From a virus (taxonomy: Duplodnaviria > Heunggongvirae > Uroviricota > Caudoviricetes): a stretch of 5,878 bases of DNA. Location of the stretch: the IMG/VR virus record IMGVR_UViG_2531839473_000007; one strand, written 5' to 3'. The notes under the pieces were generated by a model, which worked only from the letters and a program-made list of their open reading frames with translations, searched no databases and was not told the origin of the DNA. Of the stretch, positions 1-5,878 are shown one piece after another (within the stretch, counting starts at the first letter, position 1; each line of letters starts with the position of its first letter). The translations under genes and the position numbers were made by a program.

Positions 1-43
1 CGGAGCAGACGCTCACGCTGTGCGATGATGTGCGGGCCTGCCG

Positions 44-1930
44 GTGTACGGGGAGATACCGTTTAACCCGAACACCCGTGAGGTGACGACGGCGTGCATC
101 AGCCTGTTCCGCTACCAGGCGCAGGTGCGGCCCTCGCAGGTGCGTTCAAAAGACCACACGTTTAAGGTGCCGGACTGGCCGGGTATTTACATTGAGGATG
201 CTGAAAACCTCAACGGGCAACTGAAGCAGTACAAAATCCTGGACTGGCCGGGGCGCTACAAGGACGAGCAGCATGGTCAGGACTTTACCCGCTACCGGCT
301 GGAAGGGCTGCGTAACAGTGCTGAAACCGCCACAGGTATCAGTAACTCCCCGGCGCTGTGGCCGGGACGGCGGTTCACCCTGACGGGGCATCCGGTACAG
401 GGAGCGAACCCGAACCGTGAGTGGCAGGTGGTGAGCAGCACGCTGACGGGGAGCCAGCCGCAGGCGCTGCACGGCAGTCACGGTGAAGGAACGACGCTGA
501 GTAACCAGTTTGAGGTGATACCGGCAGACAGGACGTGGCGTCACGCGCCGCTGCCGAAGCCGAAGGTGGACGGCCCGCAGAGTGCCATCGTGACCGGGCC
601 GAAGGGCGAGGAGATATTCTGCGACGAACATGGCCGGGTACGGGTGAAGTTTCACTGGGACCGTTATCACGGTATGACGGAGGAGAGTTCATGCTGGATA
701 CGGGTGTCGCAGGCGTGGGCGGGAGCGGGGTTCGGTAATCTGGCGATACCGCGTGTGGGTCAGGAAGTGATAGTGGACTTTCTGAACGGGGACCCGGACC
801 AGCCCATCGTCACGGGACGCACCTACCATGAGGACAACCGTTCACCGGGGGATTTACCGGGCACGAAGACGCAGATGACGATACGGTCGAAGACCTATAA
901 AGGAAGCGGATTTAACGAGCTGCGGTTTGAAGACGCCACGGGCGGTGAGCAGGTGTATATCCATGTGCAGAAGAACATGGACACGGAGGTGCTTCACGAC
1001 CGGACGACGGACGTGAAGCATGACCACACGGAGACCATCGGGAACAACCAGAAAATCACGGTGGGGCTGGGCCAGACGGTGACGGTGGGGAAAGAGAATG
1101 CCGGAGGGCATGACCAGACCATCACGGTGGCCCATGACCGGAGCATCACGGTGCGCAACGACCAGACGCTGAAGGTGACGAACGACCGGCGGGTGAACGT
1201 CAGCCACGATGACGGTCTGTACGTCAGAAACGACCGAAAGGTGACGGTGGAAGGGAAGCAGGAGCACAAAACGACAGGAAACCACATCAGCCTGGTGGAG
1301 GGAAAACACAGCCTGGAGGTGAAAGGCGACCTGGCGAGGAAGATTACCGGCGCGCTGGGAATGAAGGTCCGGGATGAAATCGTACTGGAGAGCGGCGGTA
1401 AAATCACCCTGAAGGTGGGCGGCTCGTTCGTTGTCGTTCATTCTGGTGGCGTGGATATTGCCGGGCCGAAGATAAACCTGAACGGCGGGGGCAGTGCGGG
1501 GACACCGGTGGGGACGATGCAGCCGGGTGTACTGGCGGCGCTGGCGGATGACGGGGGTGATGAAGAAGGCGAAGATGACGGGCAGGGCAATGGCGACTCC
1601 GGTGATGGAGAGGGGGGGGCCGGAGATGATGATAGTGGAAACGATTCGGACAATTCAGATGATGATGAAAAGGAAATTGTTTCTATTAGTTGGTCCTATG
1701 GTAACAATCGGACAAAAGTTCAGGATACATCCAGACACTATGTAGACCTCAATCTCCATGTGCAGACAAAAGGGTATAGTCCTGGGGAAAGTGTGTCCGT
1801 CGAAATAAAATATGATGACTTTGATGGTATGGAAAGATCTCTTGCTGTTAGCGGCACGGTAGATGAATCAGGTGAGATGGTTGTTGAGCAGGTTTTATCT
1901 GGGGCAGACGTCTGTACTTTAGATGAGTAG
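44..1930 (+). CDS. vgrG: T6SS spike protein VgrG (vgrG1), 3' portion with C-terminal extension. The open frame starts at GTG 44 after a TGA at 26-28, but the vgrG reading continues upstream in another frame (apparent 1-bp deletion near nt 30-32), so this is a frameshifted gene or a sequencing error.
   Basis: Translation carries VgrG core motifs (FKVPDWPGIYIEDAENLNGQ, YKDEQHGQDFTRYRLEGLRNSAETATG, FHWDRYHG, gp5-like beta-helix repeats such as VKHDHTETIGNNQKITVGLGQTVTVG). It aligns residue-by-residue with the vgrG2 N-terminal region at 5509-5878. Stop TAG at 1928-1930. Confidence 0.9.
   Translation: MYGEIPFNPNTREVTTACISLFRYQAQVRPSQVRSKDHTFKVPDWPGIYIEDAENLNGQLKQYKILDWPGRYKDEQHGQDFTRYRLEGLRNSAETATGISNSPALWPGRRFTLTGHPVQGANPNREWQVVSSTLTGSQPQALHGSHGEGTTLSNQFEVIPADRTWRHAPLPKPKVDGPQSAIVTGPKGEEIFCDEHGRVRVKFHWDRYHGMTEESSCWIRVSQAWAGAGFGNLAIPRVGQEVIVDFLNGDPDQPIVTGRTYHEDNRSPGDLPGTKTQMTIRSKTYKGSGFNELRFEDATGGEQVYIHVQKNMDTEVLHDRTTDVKHDHTETIGNNQKITVGLGQTVTVGKENAGGHDQTITVAHDRSITVRNDQTLKVTNDRRVNVSHDDGLYVRNDRKVTVEGKQEHKTTGNHISLVEGKHSLEVKGDLARKITGALGMKVRDEIVLESGGKITLKVGGSFVVVHSGGVDIAGPKINLNGGGSAGTPVGTMQPGVLAALADDGGDEEGEDDGQGNGDSGDGEGGAGDDDSGNDSDNSDDDEKEIVSISWSYGNNRTKVQDTSRHYVDLNLHVQTKGYSPGESVSVEIKYDDFDGMERSLAVSGTVDESGEMVVEQVLSGADVCTLDE
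1547..1675 (+). other. Acidic low-complexity linker inside vgrG1 (D/E/G/S/N-rich, about 43 codons) between the VgrG core and the C-terminal domain; contains a G8 homopolymer.
   Basis: Translation ADDGGDEEGEDDGQGNGDSGDGEGGAGDDDSGNDSDNSDDDEK. Nucleotide composition switches from GC-rich to AT-rich within this segment. Confidence 0.8.
1612..1619 (+). repeat. G8 homopolymeric tract inside the vgrG1 coding sequence (codons GAG GGG GGG GCC).
   Basis: Eight consecutive G read directly at 1612-1619. Confidence 0.9.
1676..1927 (+). other. VgrG1 C-terminal extension domain of unknown function (about 84 aa, AT-rich); candidate cargo or adaptor-binding module.
   Basis: Translation KEIVSISWSYGNNRTKVQDTSRHYVDLNLHVQTKGYSPGESVSVEIKYDDFDGMERSLAVSGTVDESGEMVVEQVLSGADVCTLDE follows the gp5-like repeats and acidic linker. 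Its composition matches the downstream AT-rich cassette, not the vgrG core. Confidence 0.5.
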
Positions 1931-2095
1931 TTGTTTGGTAATATATGGCTGATGTTGTTGAATAAGAATTATATGATTAGCTGATCATTTAGATGACAGA
2001 ATACATACTACTATGTTGTATTCACTTAAAGTCTGGCGATTGTTTACATGACAGTTTTACGTGATACTTATTCGTTGAATCAGTAAGGGCTTATT

Positions 2096-2236
2096 ATGGC
2101 AAAAAAAGTTACAGCTAGTGCGGGAAAACAAAAATCGACTGTTAATGTAAAAAGACCTGCATGGTCTGATGTATATGAAGGATATCCAAAAGTTAATGGA
2201 GGTACTGAAATTGAGAGTGATTTGCCTATGAAATAA
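2096..2236 (+). other. N-terminal segment (46 codons) of the tae4-like effector gene, ending at an in-frame TAA (2234-2236) and continuing in the same frame as ORF 2237-2662.
   Basis: ATG at 2096 with Shine-Dalgarno TAAGGG at 2084-2089 (6-nt spacer). Translation MAKKVTASAGKQKSTVNVKRPAWSDVYEGYPKVNGGTEIESDLPMK. Same frame as the downstream catalytic ORF, separated only by TAA. Confidence 0.5.
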
Positions 2237-2662
2237 TTGTTTACATCAATTTTTGGGCCTGATTATGATACTACGCAATTCAATAATGGTTGTGCTACAA
2301 GAGTATCTCTTGGATTACTTTCTGAAGGATTAAAAAGAGTGGGGGAAAGAGATATTGTTATTAGTGAAAAATCTCATATCCATTATGGGAAATCAATAGA
2401 GCCCGGAGCTGCAAGATTAAAAGATTTTCTGATAAAAATATGGGGAAATGCAGATTATGTCATTAAATATCCTCTAAGCTTTGACGATGTAAGCTCGGTA
2501 TTAAATGATAAAAAAGGTGTTTATATAATGGTTTATAAAAGACCTGCGGATCATGGTGGTGCTACGGGACATGCTACACTATGGACTGGTAACAGAGCCA
2601 TTGGCGGTAATGACCATGCTGATTCCAGTGCTTTTGCAATCTATTTTTGGGAATTGAAATAA
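2237..2662 (+). CDS. Tae4-like T6SS peptidoglycan amidase effector (papain-like Cys-His hydrolase), catalytic portion. Likely a pseudogene or disrupted gene, because the natural start and RBS lie upstream at 2096 beyond an in-frame TAA.
   Basis: Motifs NNGCATRVSLGL (candidate catalytic Cys) and GHATLWTGN (candidate catalytic His), followed by GGNDHAD, fit the Tae4-family pattern as recalled. Size and AT-rich composition suit an effector cassette. The only in-frame start before the Cys is TTG at 2237, with no RBS. Confidence 0.55.
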   Translation: MFTSIFGPDYDTTQFNNGCATRVSLGLLSEGLKRVGERDIVISEKSHIHYGKSIEPGAARLKDFLIKIWGNADYVIKYPLSFDDVSSVLNDKKGVYIMVYKRPADHGGATGHATLWTGNRAIGGNDHADSSAFAIYFWELK

Positions 2663-3096
2663 TGAAAGCTATATTTTTTATATTCTGTATTTTTTTTATG
2701 GGAAATTCATTGTTATATTCAGAGGCTAAAGCCAGTGAATCAGAAAGTACTCTGGATGATTATAAAATATTTACACTCGCTAAATGCATTACCAGTAATT
2801 ATGAAAAAATGGGGGTTGATTTTACAAAACTACCATTGAAAGATAACACTATGGGATTTATTGATATTGATGCTGGACTCGCTTTTTATCGAAATAAGGA
2901 TAGTGTTTTAGCATCTTTCATTAATAAAAAAACAGGGGGTTTTTACAGGCCAAAACAAACTAGTGGTGATTTAGCATCTTCAAATATGGTTATATACGAC
3001 TGCGTAAATTTTTATCATTCAAAAGAGTTGGGTGTATTTCTAAAAAAAATCATTCATGAGAGGACTGTCGAAATTGAGAGAAACGCACTCGAATAG
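2662..3096 (+). CDS. Periplasmic immunity protein candidate (Tai4-like by synteny) with an N-terminal signal peptide.
   Basis: ATG at 2662 overlaps the upstream stop (TAATG). Signal peptide MKAIFFIFCIFFMGNSLLYSEAKA, then a hydrophilic mature protein of about 120 aa. Sits immediately downstream of the amidase effector, as in effector-immunity pairs. The ORF-track start (TTG 2647) is less plausible than ATG 2662. Confidence 0.5.
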   Translation: MKAIFFIFCIFFMGNSLLYSEAKASESESTLDDYKIFTLAKCITSNYEKMGVDFTKLPLKDNTMGFIDIDAGLAFYRNKDSVLASFINKKTGGFYRPKQTSGDLASSNMVIYDCVNFYHSKELGVFLKKIIHERTVEIERNALE

Positions 3097-3271
3097 ATAA
3101 TTCTGGCGGTGACTTTGTTTTTTTTGGATGCAATGCAATATATAAAAATTGTATTTGTTCGAAAATAATATAAAATATCCGAGAAAAATATCATTCGCTA
3201 TTAAAGTGTCTAAGCGTTTTTACATAAGTACTTTACATCGTTTAGTTTAAAAACGCGGCTATCAATAAATG

Positions 3272-3288
3272 TCGCAAAGGATTTGCGA
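3272..3288. promoter_or_regulatory. Perfect 7-bp inverted repeat TCGCAAA-gga-TTTGCGA about 45 bp upstream of the PAAR start, in an AT-rich intergenic region; candidate operator or promoter element.
   Basis: Palindrome read directly. TTGCGA within it could serve as a -35-like hexamer, with TATACA about 19 bp downstream. No strong assignment. Confidence 0.25.
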
Positions 3289-3331
3289 TATAATTCAATA
3301 TGTAAATTATACAACACATAAGGAAATTTAT

Positions 3332-3616
3332 ATGCCCACAGCAGCCAGACTCAGCGATAAAGGCACCCAGCATGACGGTTATTATGAGACCGCCATTATT
3401 GCAGGCTCCTCCTCCGTCTTTATTGATGGTATGCCCGCCGCCCGTCAGGGCGATCCGCTGACACCGCATTCCAAACCCGACCATCCCCCTCACCCCCGTA
3501 AAATCGCAGGCGGCTCTGCCACTGTCTTTATTGACGGTAAACCTGCCGCCAGAACCGGCGATGCCATTGACTGTGGCGGCGTGGTTATCGGTGGCGGCAC
3601 GGTAAATATAGGCTGA
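3332..3616 (+). CDS. Stand-alone PAAR-domain protein (T6SS spike-sharpening tip), 94 aa.
   Basis: Three PAAR-type motifs (TAARLSD, PAARQGD, PAARTGD) with G/I-rich beta-strand spacers. Shine-Dalgarno AAGGAAA 6 nt before ATG 3332. Stop TGA at 3614-3616. The ORF-track upstream ATG at 3269 lacks an RBS, and the PAAR domain begins at Met 3332. Confidence 0.9.
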   Translation: MPTAARLSDKGTQHDGYYETAIIAGSSSVFIDGMPAARQGDPLTPHSKPDHPPHPRKIAGGSATVFIDGKPAARTGDAIDCGGVVIGGGTVNIG

Positions 3617-3705
3617 TTAATTATCAGGGAGGCTGTATGCCCTCAGAAGGATTACGTTTCACGCTGTCGGTGGCCGGCATTGTGGAGATGGCGACGGCGG
3701 TGGTC
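3612..3705 (+). repeat. Direct repeat copy 1 (about 94 bp, about 90 percent identical to 4898-4987): TGATTAAT junction, Shine-Dalgarno GGGAGG, and the first 23 codons of vgrG.
   Basis: Alignment by eye: gctgattaat..cagggagg..atgccctcagaaggattacgtttcacgctgtcggtggccggcattgtggagatggcgacggcggtggt versus the vgrG2 5' region. Confidence 0.9.
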
Positions 3706-4398
3706 GTAGAGGACGGCATATTTGGAAAAAATACATACGACGCAGTGAAAATATTTCAGCGGTATAATGGGTTAAATGATGATGGCATCGTAGGGCCACA
3801 AACCTGGCGGAAATTGGGTGTTCCTGAACTTTTAACGCGAAGTTCATCAGGCTCTCCCGCCAGCCCTTCTTCGGGGCCATCCCGGAGCCCTTCTGCTGAT
3901 TCAAATGGTACTGTTGCTGAGACTGGTGATGGATTCTGTTTCCCATTCCCTGCACTTCCTGCGAGATCGTGGACAAACGGCGGTCGTCAATTTGGGGCGT
4001 CACGCAGTGGGGGCCGCAGACATGCCGGTTGTGATTTGATATTCCCCCGAGGAACGCTTATTTATGCTGTTGCTGATGGCATATTAGTTCAGCCCCCATA
4101 TCCATTTTACGAAGGTACTTCTGCTGTAGAAATTAGACATGGCAACCTTCTCCTTCGCTATGGTGAAATTATTAATGGGTCATACGTAGGTGGGCAAACG
4201 GTTCAAAAAGGTCAGGTTATTGCTAAGGTAGGAAGGCTGCATTCGGGTTCATCTATGTTGCATCTGGAGATTTATACGAATGCGACCTTATCGGGTGACC
4301 TTACAGATCGCAACAGAGCGCCTTATCAAAGACGTTCTGATGTGACAGATCCTGCCCCATATCTGGATATCTGGAAAAATAACCTGCCTACCCTCTGA
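3637..4398 (+). CDS. Chimeric putative T6SS effector: vgrG-derived N-terminus (23 aa), then a partial peptidoglycan-binding (PG_binding_1-like) motif, a Ser/Pro-rich linker and an M23/LytM-like peptidase domain.
   Basis: N-terminus MPSEGLRFTLSVAGIVEMATAVV matches the vgrG2 start MSSEGLRFTLSVDGIVEMATAVV. DGIFGKNTYDAVKIFQRYNGLNDDGIVGPQTWRKLG matches the second half of the PG_binding_1 consensus. M23-like blocks: HAGCD (HxxxD), GTLIYAVADGILV, VEIRHGNLLLRYGEI, GQTVQKGQVIAKVG, SMLHLEIY, VTDPAPYL. Shine-Dalgarno GGGAGG precedes ATG 3637. Confidence 0.75.
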   Translation: MPSEGLRFTLSVAGIVEMATAVVVEDGIFGKNTYDAVKIFQRYNGLNDDGIVGPQTWRKLGVPELLTRSSSGSPASPSSGPSRSPSADSNGTVAETGDGFCFPFPALPARSWTNGGRQFGASRSGGRRHAGCDLIFPRGTLIYAVADGILVQPPYPFYEGTSAVEIRHGNLLLRYGEIINGSYVGGQTVQKGQVIAKVGRLHSGSSMLHLEIYTNATLSGDLTDRNRAPYQRRSDVTDPAPYLDIWKNNLPTL

Positions 4399-4417
4399 TG
4401 TTTAAGGAATCAATAAA

Positions 4418-4882
4418 ATGTTCAAAAAGATAATACTATTTTTAACGGTGATATCTTCGAGTTTTGTTGTTTGTCTTGCGGCTGATTCAGAAAAGATATT
4501 ATCAGTAGATCCTGTTGTGAATAATTTTGGCGTTGATGAAGTCGTAGGGTTGCCTCATCCTGTTTGTACTTTGAGTCTGGCTGAAAATAATGAGAAACAT
4601 CTTTATAATTATGTTGAGGGCGGTATCTGCCCTGTGGGCGGTGAAAGTTGTCCTTATTCAGCCGTCATAAAACTGAATGGCAAGATGGCGATATTAAAAC
4701 AGATATCGACAAATAAAAATATCAGTTTTTTTAAGAATGATGAGGTATCGATTATCACAACACAAAGCCCAGTTAAAGGAGCTGTGGTGGATGAAGAGGG
4801 TGGTGATGTGAATGCCGTTATTGTAATCAAAACAAAAAATAGCGAAATAAAACTTAATATGTCCGGGTACTGTGGTATTTAA
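4418..4882 (+). CDS. Putative periplasmic immunity protein for the M23-like effector (secreted, Cys-containing, no family recognised).
   Basis: Signal peptide MFKKIILFLTVISSSFVVCLA followed by ADSEK. Four Cys in the mature part (C50, C71, C78, C152). Shine-Dalgarno AAGGA 9 nt before ATG 4418. AT-rich. Immediately downstream of the effector. Confidence 0.5.
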   Translation: MFKKIILFLTVISSSFVVCLAADSEKILSVDPVVNNFGVDEVVGLPHPVCTLSLAENNEKHLYNYVEGGICPVGGESCPYSAVIKLNGKMAILKQISTNKNISFFKNDEVSIITTQSPVKGAVVDEEGGDVNAVIVIKTKNSEIKLNMSGYCGI

Positions 4883-4897
4883 AACCGGGCTATTATC

Positions 4898-4987
4898 GCT
4901 GATTAATCAAGGGAGGTCATATGTCCTCAGAAGGATTACGTTTCACGCTGTCGGTGGACGGTATTGTGGAGATGGCGACGGCAGTGG
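4898..4987 (+). repeat. Direct repeat copy 2: the authentic vgrG2 translation-initiation region and first 23 codons.
   Basis: Same alignment as copy 1; gctgattaat at 4898-4907, GGGAGG at 4911-4916, ATG at 4921. Confidence 0.9.
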
Positions 4988-5878
4988 TGAGCTTCCGTCT
5001 GTACCAGCACCACTGCACACCGTTCATCCTGGATGTGGATATCGCCAGCGGACTGTCTGACCTGACGGCGGAGGATTTTCTGGAGAAAAGCGCGGTGCTG
5101 ACGGTCTGGCAGGGCGACACTGCACAGCGTTACGTCAGCGGTATCGTGACGGAGGTGCAGCTCGGTGAGAACAACGACTGGCAGATGCGTTATTCCCTGA
5201 GCATCAGCCCGCCGCTGTGGCGGGCAGGGTTACGGCAGAACTTCCGTATCTTCCAGCAGCAGGACATCGGGACGATATCAGCACAGCTTCTTGAAGAGAA
5301 CGGGGTGACGGCGTGGATGCCGCTGTTCTATGAGGCGCACCCGGCGCGGGAGTTCTGCGTGCAGTACGGGGAGAGCGACCTGGCGTTCCTGACCCGGCTG
5401 TGGGCGGAGGAAGGTATCTTCTTTTATGAGCGCTGCAGTCAGGAAGGGCCGGAACAGAAGCTGGCGGTGTGTGATGACGTGGCGGGGCTGACGGGAATGG
5501 GGGCGCTGGCGTTTAACCCGGACACGACGACCGGGGGAACGACGGAGTACATCAGCGAGTTTCGTTACCGTGCGCAGATAAGCGTGGCGTCGGTGGAGAC
5601 GCAGGATTATACGTTCAAAACGCCGGGGTGGCCGGGGTACTACAGCCATGCCGGGGAGAGCCTGAACGGGCAGGGAACGCAGTACGAGATATTTGATTAT
5701 CCGGGGCGTTTCAAGGATGAGCAGCACGGCCAGGACTTTGCGCGTTACCAGACGGAAGGGTGGCGGAACGGGGCGGAGACGGCGAGCGGGGTGTGTAACA
5801 CGGCGCGACTGTGGCCGGGAACGCGGTTCCGGCTGACGGGCCATCCCTCAGGGACGCTGAACCGGGAATGGCAGGTTG
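4921..5878 (+). CDS. vgrG: T6SS spike protein VgrG (vgrG2), N-terminal about 319 codons; 3' end beyond the window.
   Basis: Open frame from ATG 4921 to the window end with no stop (translated by hand). Begins MSSEGLRFTLSVDGIVEMATAVVSFRLYQ and continues with VgrG core motifs (TFKTPGWPGYY, FKDEQHGQDFARYQTEGWRNGAETASG). Strong Shine-Dalgarno AAGGGAGG. Confidence 0.92.
   Translation, partial: MSSEGLRFTLSVDGIVEMATAVVSFRLYQHHCTPFILDVDIASGLSDLTAEDFLEKSAVLTVWQGDTAQRYVSGIVTEVQLGENNDWQMRYSLSISPPLWRAGLRQNFRIFQQQDIGTISAQLLEENGVTAWMPLFYEAHPAREFCVQYGESDLAFLTRLWAEEGIFFYERCSQEGPEQKLAVCDDVAGLTGMGALAFNPDTTTGGTTEYISEFRYRAQISVASVETQDYTFKTPGWPGYYSHAGESLNGQGTQYEIFDYPGRFKDEQHGQDFARYQTEGWRNGAETASGVCNTARLWPGTRFRLTGHPSGTLNREWQV

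Follow-up and report, generated by a model that had tools for sequence, protein, structure and literature searches.

Low-GC, variable modules beside the vgrG genes of type VI secretion systems (T6SSs) have been established, as have VgrG spike proteins with C-terminal domains (CTDs) specific to their cargo. In Vibrio cholerae, T6SS effector modules are low-GC blocks of effector and immunity genes downstream of vgrG that vary among strains and have been read as independent acquisitions (Unterweger et al. 2014, PMC3988814). In the Sci-1 system of enteroaggregative Escherichia coli (EAEC), a TTR domain carried on a flexible linker of VgrG1 binds the effector Tle1 by strand complementation (described in PMC10715212), and Ig-like/TTR contacts are made between VgrG17 and the amidase Tae17 of Acinetobacter baumannii (PMC11796386). 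Here we analyse a stretch of 5,878 nucleotides (the window) filed as virus record IMGVR_UViG_2531839473_000007. The window is E. coli T6SS-1 island DNA: from end to end it is 99.97% identical to the chromosome of E. coli MFDS1022581, and its place in the island is between hcp/tssBC and yafV-ivy-fadE. We consider it highly probable that positions ~1552-3331 are one portable T6SS cargo module, set in a vgrG...PAAR-vgrG frame and exchanged by homologous recombination, in which the tail domain of VgrG1 would dock a Tae4-family amidase. This kind of module is already well known. What the locus adds is a GC step of ~27 points, mapped crossovers, an unannotated tail family tied to a single Tae4 subfamily in two phyla, and a dead effector whose immunity gene has been kept.

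The locus shares with the V. cholerae modules a lower GC content than that of conserved T6SS genes, strain variability at a fixed position, and the combination of an effector with an immunity gene. It differs in the size of the GC drop (~27 points here versus ~9 there), in a module that includes the 3' end of vgrG, in frame genes that lie above the host GC content, and in an effector gene that is a pseudogene. The resemblance to the EAEC VgrG1/Tle1 and A. baumannii VgrG17/Tae17 pairs consists of a small beta-sandwich behind the needle on a flexible linker, with the effector gene just downstream; binding in the present system is proposed by analogy with them. The differences from those systems are that neither Pfam nor NCBIfam has a model for the present tail domain, that the VgrG lacks DUF2345, that the cargo is a small Tae4 amidase, and that PAAR, DUF4280 and Flavobacteriia VgrG proteins can carry the same tail.

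The composition of the window is not uniform, either by sliding GC content or by codon usage. In a 200-bp sliding profile, GC was ~0.56-0.68 up to ~1600, 0.29-0.38 over ~1800-3300, 0.62 at 3400-3600 and 0.34-0.41 at 4400-4900, returning to ~0.6 from 5000 on. Entropy (Jensen-Shannon) segmentation placed change points at 1623/1624, 3333/3334, 4057/4058 and 4945/4946, giving five segments with GC contents of 0.614 (1-1623), 0.337 (1624-3333), 0.55 (3334-4057), 0.393 (4058-4945) and 0.621 (4946-5878). The first split scored 94.8, compared with a mean of 4.9 and a maximum of 16.1 in 30 composition-matched shuffles. A preliminary description of this DNA, made from its letters, had placed an AT-rich block at 1625-3331 between GC-rich vgrG and PAAR genes. 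The computed boundaries fall no more than 2 bp from that interval (GC 0.337, versus 0.613 leftward), and the vgrG cores (GC 0.61) and the PAAR gene (GC 0.58) are GC-rich. The description was also right that the immunity gene at 4418-4882 is AT-rich (GC 0.363).

Codon usage repeats the pattern. GC content at third codon positions (GC3) was 0.72-0.78 in the vgrG cores (0.77 in vgrG1 and 0.78 in vgrG2) and 0.55-0.63 in PAAR. In the 3' extension of vgrG1 it was 0.41 for the linker and 0.37 for the CTD, and among the cargo genes it was 0.19 for tae4, 0.24 for immunity gene 1, 0.36-0.40 for the M23 peptidase gene and 0.31 for immunity gene 2. As a host baseline, the flanking housekeeping genes yafV, ivy and fadE had values of 0.58-0.62, and T6SS core genes of 0.51-0.61. 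Segment 1624-3333 (1710 bp), at 0.337, also stands well apart from the flanking housekeeping genes (GC 0.50-0.55) and from the E. coli chromosome (50.8%). The contrast is therefore two-sided: cargo lies far below the host level, and vgrG somewhat above it. The boundary is very sharp because the module is low in GC while the vgrG/PAAR frame exceeds the E. coli average.

The higher GC content of vgrG and PAAR (1-1551, 3332-3616 and 4918-5878), set against the housekeeping and T6SS core genes, could reflect a foreign origin of these genes or GC-biased gene conversion among recombining vgrG paralogs. Whether the contrast comes largely from such a frame, atypically GC-rich through import of higher-GC DNA or through conversion among paralogs, seems doubtful to us. 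The idea draws on the GC3 of vgrG, which exceeds that of both housekeeping and T6SS core genes, and on vgrG paralogs that are many (up to nine matching places per genome) and mosaic. However, cargo GC3 of 0.19-0.24 is too low even against the host baseline, so a frame effect adds to the contrast and cannot replace cassette exchange.

Exchange of the block is supported by three independent lines of evidence, namely its rarity, the alternative cassettes found at the same junction, and a step in sequence divergence. Of 5426 complete E. coli genomes, one alone contained the cassette (1640-3330), with 100% identity, whereas the adjoining needle region of vgrG had matches in 3952 E. coli genomes. 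Among needle-region matches sampled across the whole ranking, none continued past window position 1525/1551, and query coverage of at least 80% was reached in one genome only. Homology to vgrG1 paralogs stops at 1551-1563. Other vgrG copies, both paralogs and orthologs, share a common core end ('...GPKINLNGGG..GTPV.T.QP.VL.AL') and then continue into their own acidic linker and CTD (GC 0.44-0.50). The AT-rich cargos behind them include two hypothetical proteins, an M35 peptidase with a partner, and DUF4123 with DUF3304 and Tle1. One tail type (PEKYTLQFHFTDDDGIPYSET...) is common to two other vgrG copies (L001, 7593-7827; L002, 8407-8716) whose cargo is annotated differently, as two hypothetical proteins in one and as an M35 peptidase plus a hypothetical protein in the other.

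The divergence step was measured against Escherichia sp. E4385, where the genes stand in the same order and tae4 is intact. The vgrG core was 84.7% identical, the linker and tail domain 100%, and tae4, the immunity gene and both spacers 97-98%; to the right, identity fell to 91% for PAAR and 89% for the vgrG leader. Expressed as mismatch density, the values were 15.7% for the vgrG core, 2.0% for 1546-3331 (both spacers included) and 10.2% for PAAR plus leader. Both crossover intervals (Table 1) lie within conserved flanks, which fits the expectation for homologous recombination. The module would thus have entered by recombination within ~100 bp at the end of the vgrG needle and ~70 bp at the start of PAAR. 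The left junction, as judged from recombination and homology (~1451-1551), lies 70-170 bp 5' of the GC step at 1624; the offset is due to the acidic linker, which is part of the cassette without being AT-rich. These results support the view that the AT-rich block is a horizontally exchanged T6SS cargo module recombined into a GC-rich E. coli spike gene. They also bear out two further claims of the preliminary description, that effector-immunity modules are exchanged horizontally here and that a junction lies inside the vgrG 3' end, now refined to a position upstream of the GC step. Comparison among genomes showed other cassettes at this junction and a cassette that is far from universal in E. 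coli.

Two explanations would do without any exchange between genomes. One is that the segment became AT-rich in place, through relaxed selection, AT-biased mutation or a biased amino acid composition; a tae4 pseudogene and a vgrG1 frame broken in the window would suit it. We regard this as very improbable. AT-richness is just as great in the intact immunity gene and in intact orthologous tae4, genomes that are only 85% identical in the vgrG core share the cassette at 97-100% identity, the cassette is confined to a single complete E. coli genome, and the same composition step recurs in other genera; the divergence step already contradicts AT enrichment in place. The other explanation, that the junctions are an assembly or chimeric-contig artefact, has a negligible probability. 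We found no evidence for it, and the same arrangement is shared by the complete E. coli chromosome, an independent assembly of Escherichia sp. and an assembly from raw reads, with the encoded proteins recorded on 46-68 contigs.

The VgrG1 tail domain (86 amino acids, 1670-1927) carries the motif W.YG...SRHYVDLNLH..T..Y..GE.V. Its predicted structure is a beta sandwich (predicted local distance difference test score, pLDDT, 86.8), and structural comparison matched it best to bacterial Ig-like repeats and, more weakly, to the N-terminal domain of a T6SS effector from Bacteroides fragilis whose structure was determined within a VgrG-bound cargo complex. A word-indexed homologue search with the tail returned three proteins only; the family was reached by an exhaustive profile search, which gave 202 cluster representatives, mostly C-termini of PAAR, DUF4280 or VgrG proteins. 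By tblastn, the tail, tae4 and immunity gene turned up jointly in three other settings: Superficieibacter; Kalamiella, where the carrier is a DUF2345-type VgrG; and a metagenomic contig, where the carrier is PAAR-like.

Linkage was then scanned in 185,579 species genomes, one per species, which yielded 34 tae4 loci. Twelve of these have the tail domain as the C-terminus of the open reading frame directly upstream of tae4, with gaps of 6-228 bp. The 12 comprise all five Enterobacterales loci and seven Flavobacteriia loci, and their carriers are VgrGs of T6SSi and of Flavobacteriia, DUF2345-type and Chryseobacterium VgrGs among them, and a DUF4280 protein. Tail and Tae4 are also fused in single chains (P0118, P0006, P0023 and P0024), with the tail on either side of Tae4. 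The fusion P0118 additionally bears DUF3289. Chryseobacterium sp. JK1 (L017, 3637-6282) has a tandem pair of tail and tae4 units, the second tail frame apparently broken in two.

With a predicted beta-sandwich behind the needle on a flexible linker and a genetic association with one effector family, the tail resembles the TTR/Ig-like docking domains of other VgrGs, and it is probably an effector dock for Tae4. We propose that it hangs from the spike on its linker and would hold the cognate amidase in the manner of those domains. If the tail docks Tae4, a swap must bring the vgrG 3' end along with the effector, and the junction therefore falls inside vgrG. The module would then consist of three co-inherited parts: the vgrG1 3' extension (acidic flexible linker plus Ig-like domain), the Tae4-family gene and an immunity gene of Tai4/Rap fold, whose translation would be coupled to that of the effector.

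Membership of the effector in the Tae4 family is clear. The Pfam model Tae4 (PF14113) matched along its whole profile (positions 1-125 of 125) with E 9.3e-14 and 52 bits, where the gathering score is 27, and a sequence match to Serratia Ssp1 (4bi3) extended over 126 residues (E 2.8e-5). The catalytic Cys and His of the papain-like (NlpC/P60) fold are conserved: the Cys of 'NNGCATRV' aligns with Ssp1 C50, the residue mutated in 4bi4, and C66 and H159 are invariant across 21 homologues. However, an in-frame TAA at 2234-2236 splits the gene into a 46-amino acid N-terminal fragment and a 141-amino acid fragment with a TTG start. In place of the ATGACTGATTTG of intact tae4, the window has ATGAAATAATTG; ATG AAA TAA TTG replaces ATG ACT GAT TTG, so that 4 of 6 bases differ in one cluster. 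Intact orthologues have 188 amino acids and 97% identity. In the protein collection, for Escherichia, the 141-amino acid fragment is recorded on 60 contigs and the 46-amino acid fragment on 68, versus ~8 contigs for intact 188-amino acid alleles; the full-length immunity protein 1 is recorded on more than 60. The effector has thus been inactivated in this lineage, while the immunity gene has been kept intact. Judged from its sequence, tae4 here is a family member by descent, now a pseudogene or split gene. For the tae4-like gene named in the preliminary description, the family assignment stands, with the refinement that the gene is split. The gene calls assumed there agree with ours: Pfam identified VgrG, Tae4, PAAR and M23, and the Tai4-like gene was recognised from its fold.

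We rejected the idea that the 141-amino acid fragment with its TTG start is a genuine short Tae4: homologues align through the 46-amino acid fragment, the motif RPxW..VY.GYPK within the family is invariant, and intact 188-amino acid orthologues exist. The Prokaryotic Genome Annotation Pipeline (PGAP) calls the two pieces as separate genes without a pseudogene mark. A preprint on T6SS-1 of Shiga toxin-producing E. coli makes no mention of this Tae4.

The ATG of immunity gene 1 overlaps the tae4 stop codon (TAATG, 2660-2664). Its product has a hydrophobic, signal-peptide-like N-terminus and two invariant Cys, and its predicted fold is small and all-helical, with Rap2a, Tai4, Rap2b and Rap1b as the best structural matches. 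Searches of Pfam, NCBIfam and PDB sequences gave no significant match, and sequence similarity to Tai4/Rap was not found. The gene lies directly 3' of the amidase gene and co-occurs with tae4 at Enterobacterales loci. The fold model, gene position and predicted export are consistent with a periplasmic immunity protein of Tai4/Rap fold, a putative neutraliser of Tae4. The pair is like Tae4-Tai4 of Salmonella Typhimurium and Enterobacter cloacae and Ssp1/Ssp2-Rap of Serratia marcescens in its Tae4 domain, aligned Cys and Tai4/Rap-like immunity fold. It differs from these known pairs in belonging to a distinct subfamily, with Ssp1 as the only sequence match to a solved Tae4-family protein, and in having 188 residues with an N-terminal extension. 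Its gene sits behind vgrG, not in the structural T6SS region, and is broken by a stop codon here; by sequence, the immunity protein matches neither Tai4 nor Rap.

A homologue of immunity protein 1 with 64% identity occurs in Salmonella enterica (L010-L012, 8001-8429); the cluster to which it belongs has 480 member sequences. The gene is part of an array of small genes without annotation, a CdiI-family gene among them, and no Tae4-family gene was called nearby. This array looks like an orphan immunity island.

The composition step recurs in other GC-rich hosts. In Kalamiella, Superficieibacter, Intestinirhabdus and Serratia oryzae, the carrier core has a GC content of 0.52-0.64, which drops at the tail start to 0.38-0.40; tae4 in the same hosts is at 0.40-0.47 and the immunity gene at 0.30-0.37. 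In the AT-rich hosts Thorsellia, Chryseobacterium, Bergeyella and Flavobacterium, the module (GC 0.30-0.38) matches the host's own composition; Flavobacteriia and Thorsellia, which carry the same module, have the genome composition that the module displays. Module homologues share only 36-60% amino acid identity, and the low GC must therefore be long-lived. We propose that the module keeps the low GC content of an accessory gene pool in which it would circulate. Flavobacteriia were considered as a named donor and not adopted, amino acid identity to them being only 38-46%.

Alternatively, selection may actively maintain AT-richness, for instance if toxin cassettes are under H-NS/StpA silencing or their expression is restricted to certain conditions. 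H-NS represses the T6SS of Salmonella pathogenicity island 6 (SPI-6), and at cts1 of Citrobacter rodentium its binding covers internal stretches of AT-rich DNA, among them the spacer between vgrG and PAAR (PMC12288458; PMC13475847). The present locus is like these two in having an AT-rich stretch within an enterobacterial T6SS locus, a likeness in composition alone. On these grounds a 1.7-kb stretch at 34% GC is a plausible candidate for H-NS silencing, and so the remark in the preliminary description that AT-rich islands of this sort are typical targets of xenogeneic silencing in enterobacteria is plausible for this locus. Matches to the H-NS high-affinity motif TCGATAAATT, allowing up to two mismatches, numbered 7 against 6.6 expected, so that the motif is not enriched. 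Maintenance by selection gains from modules that remain AT-rich (GC 0.30-0.47) in GC-rich carriers of five Enterobacterales genera, with no drift to the host value, from island cargo that lies entirely below host GC with the immunity genes lowest, and from the precedent of the two silenced T6SS loci. It loses from the unenriched motif, from the fact that frequent turnover out of an AT-rich pool explains the same pattern, and from low GC being a general feature of accessory genes. We judge it unlikely. Note that the persistence of low GC, taken alone, fits circulation in an AT-rich accessory pool and selection for AT-richness equally well.

Several points weigh against a docking module drawn from such a pool. 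Twenty-two of the 34 tae4 loci, the more distant ones, have no upstream tail domain at E <= 1e-3, and the tail-tae4 pairing is therefore subfamily-specific. Linkage and fusions of tail and tae4 would equally fit a role of the tail in folding, stabilisation or secretion signalling. At amino acid identities of 36-60% no donor can be named, and AT-richness that persists at such distances could reflect selection, not ancestry. Finally, with tae4 a pseudogene, the module is no working weapon in this strain.

A broader proposal can be advanced tentatively: the tail may be an undescribed portable 'plug' for one Tae4 subfamily, moving with its effector among gp5-type and DUF2345-type VgrG, PAAR, DUF4280 and Flavobacteriia VgrG carriers and across two phyla. 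The persistently low GC would then be the mark of an inter-phylum cargo pool, possibly kept AT-rich to let H-NS silence it. We hold this to be possible, if short of likely; if true, it would explain how an effector can be transplanted across T6SS types in one recombination event. Current models are unchanged by our findings. The exchanged module nevertheless offers a clean quantitative case of T6SS arsenal reshuffling, in which the unit exchanged includes the cargo-specific tail of the spike. The tail family (~200 cluster representatives) could help to predict which spike loads which Tae4-type amidase, and the decay of an effector whose immunity gene is kept matters when the competitive phenotype of a strain is inferred from gene content.

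Table 1. Features of the 5,878-nucleotide window and crossover intervals relative to Escherichia sp. E4385.
Feature	Position	Strand	Basis and remarks
vgrG1 conserved core (gp27/OB/gp5-needle)	1..1551	+	Pfam Phage_GPD, Phage_base_V, Gp5_trimer_C; GC 0.61; 5' end outside window
Left crossover interval	1451..1498		Mismatches dense to 1450, one at 1498, zero over 1499-1947
vgrG1 acidic Gly/Asp/Ser-rich linker, cassette-specific	1552..1669	+	Translation; GC 0.56, i.e. not AT-rich
VgrG1 CTD, 86 amino acids, putative Tae4-docking domain	1670..1930	+	Predicted Ig-like beta-sandwich; GC 0.42; vgrG1 ends at 1930
Intergenic spacer vgrG1-tae4	1931..2095		AT-rich, GC 0.31
Tae4-family peptidoglycan amidase gene	2096..2662	+	Pfam Tae4; interrupted by in-frame TAA
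Immunity gene 1, 144 amino acids	2662..3096	+	Tai4/Rap-like helical fold (predicted); GC 0.31
Intergenic spacer upstream of PAAR	3097..3331		AT-rich, GC 0.27; PAAR-paralog homology begins at 3319-3325
Right crossover interval	3328..3402		Zero mismatches over 3328-3402, dense from 3403
PAAR spike-tip gene, conserved frame element	3332..3616	+	Pfam PAAR_motif, 1.1e-20; GC 0.58
vgrG 5'-end remnant (ribosome-binding site and first 23 codons)	3626..3704	+	91% identical to 4910-4988
Second effector, peptidoglycan-binding and M23 peptidase	3637..4398	+	Chimeric N-terminus; GC 0.48-0.49
Putative immunity gene 2, 154 amino acids	4418..4882	+	Signal-peptide-like N-terminus; GC 0.36
vgrG2 5' part, next conserved spike gene	4918..5878	+	GC 0.61

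The window differs from MFDS1022581 at two places, a 1-bp deletion near 31 and a C/T change at 5612. The deletion (GTGGCGGG to GTGCGGG), which may be genuine or an error of sequencing, shifts the frame of vgrG1 and creates a stop in the upstream frame at ~26-28. The PAAR gene is 97.9% identical to that of E. coli PapRG-04-4. No RNA family was found within the window by Rfam at gathering thresholds, the product of immunity gene 2 matched no family in Pfam or NCBIfam, and a terminator scan gave no convincing terminator 3' of vgrG1 or of immunity gene 1. A promoter consensus scan returned 14 promoter-like sites versus 8.0 ± 3.0 expected, nearly all in AT-rich DNA, as composition predicts.

The second effector has undergone a rearrangement of its own. 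A direct repeat of 79 bp (91% identity) lies at 3626-3704 and 4910-4988, and a 445-bp deletion relative to E4385 has joined the M23 gene, in frame, to the 23 codons that begin a vgrG remnant. The product lacks the first 21 profile positions (the first third) of PG_binding_1. The E4385 counterpart has a longer vgrG fragment of 121 amino acids and a separate M23 gene of 260 amino acids with a complete PG_binding_1. Insertion sequences also interrupt the vgrG island of E. coli MFDS1022581, where copies of IS2 and IS21 were found (L001, 9495-10723 and 18521-20485). IS21 splits vgrG2 of this strain just past the end of the window, and an independent strain (L003) carries IS21 at the same vgrG position.

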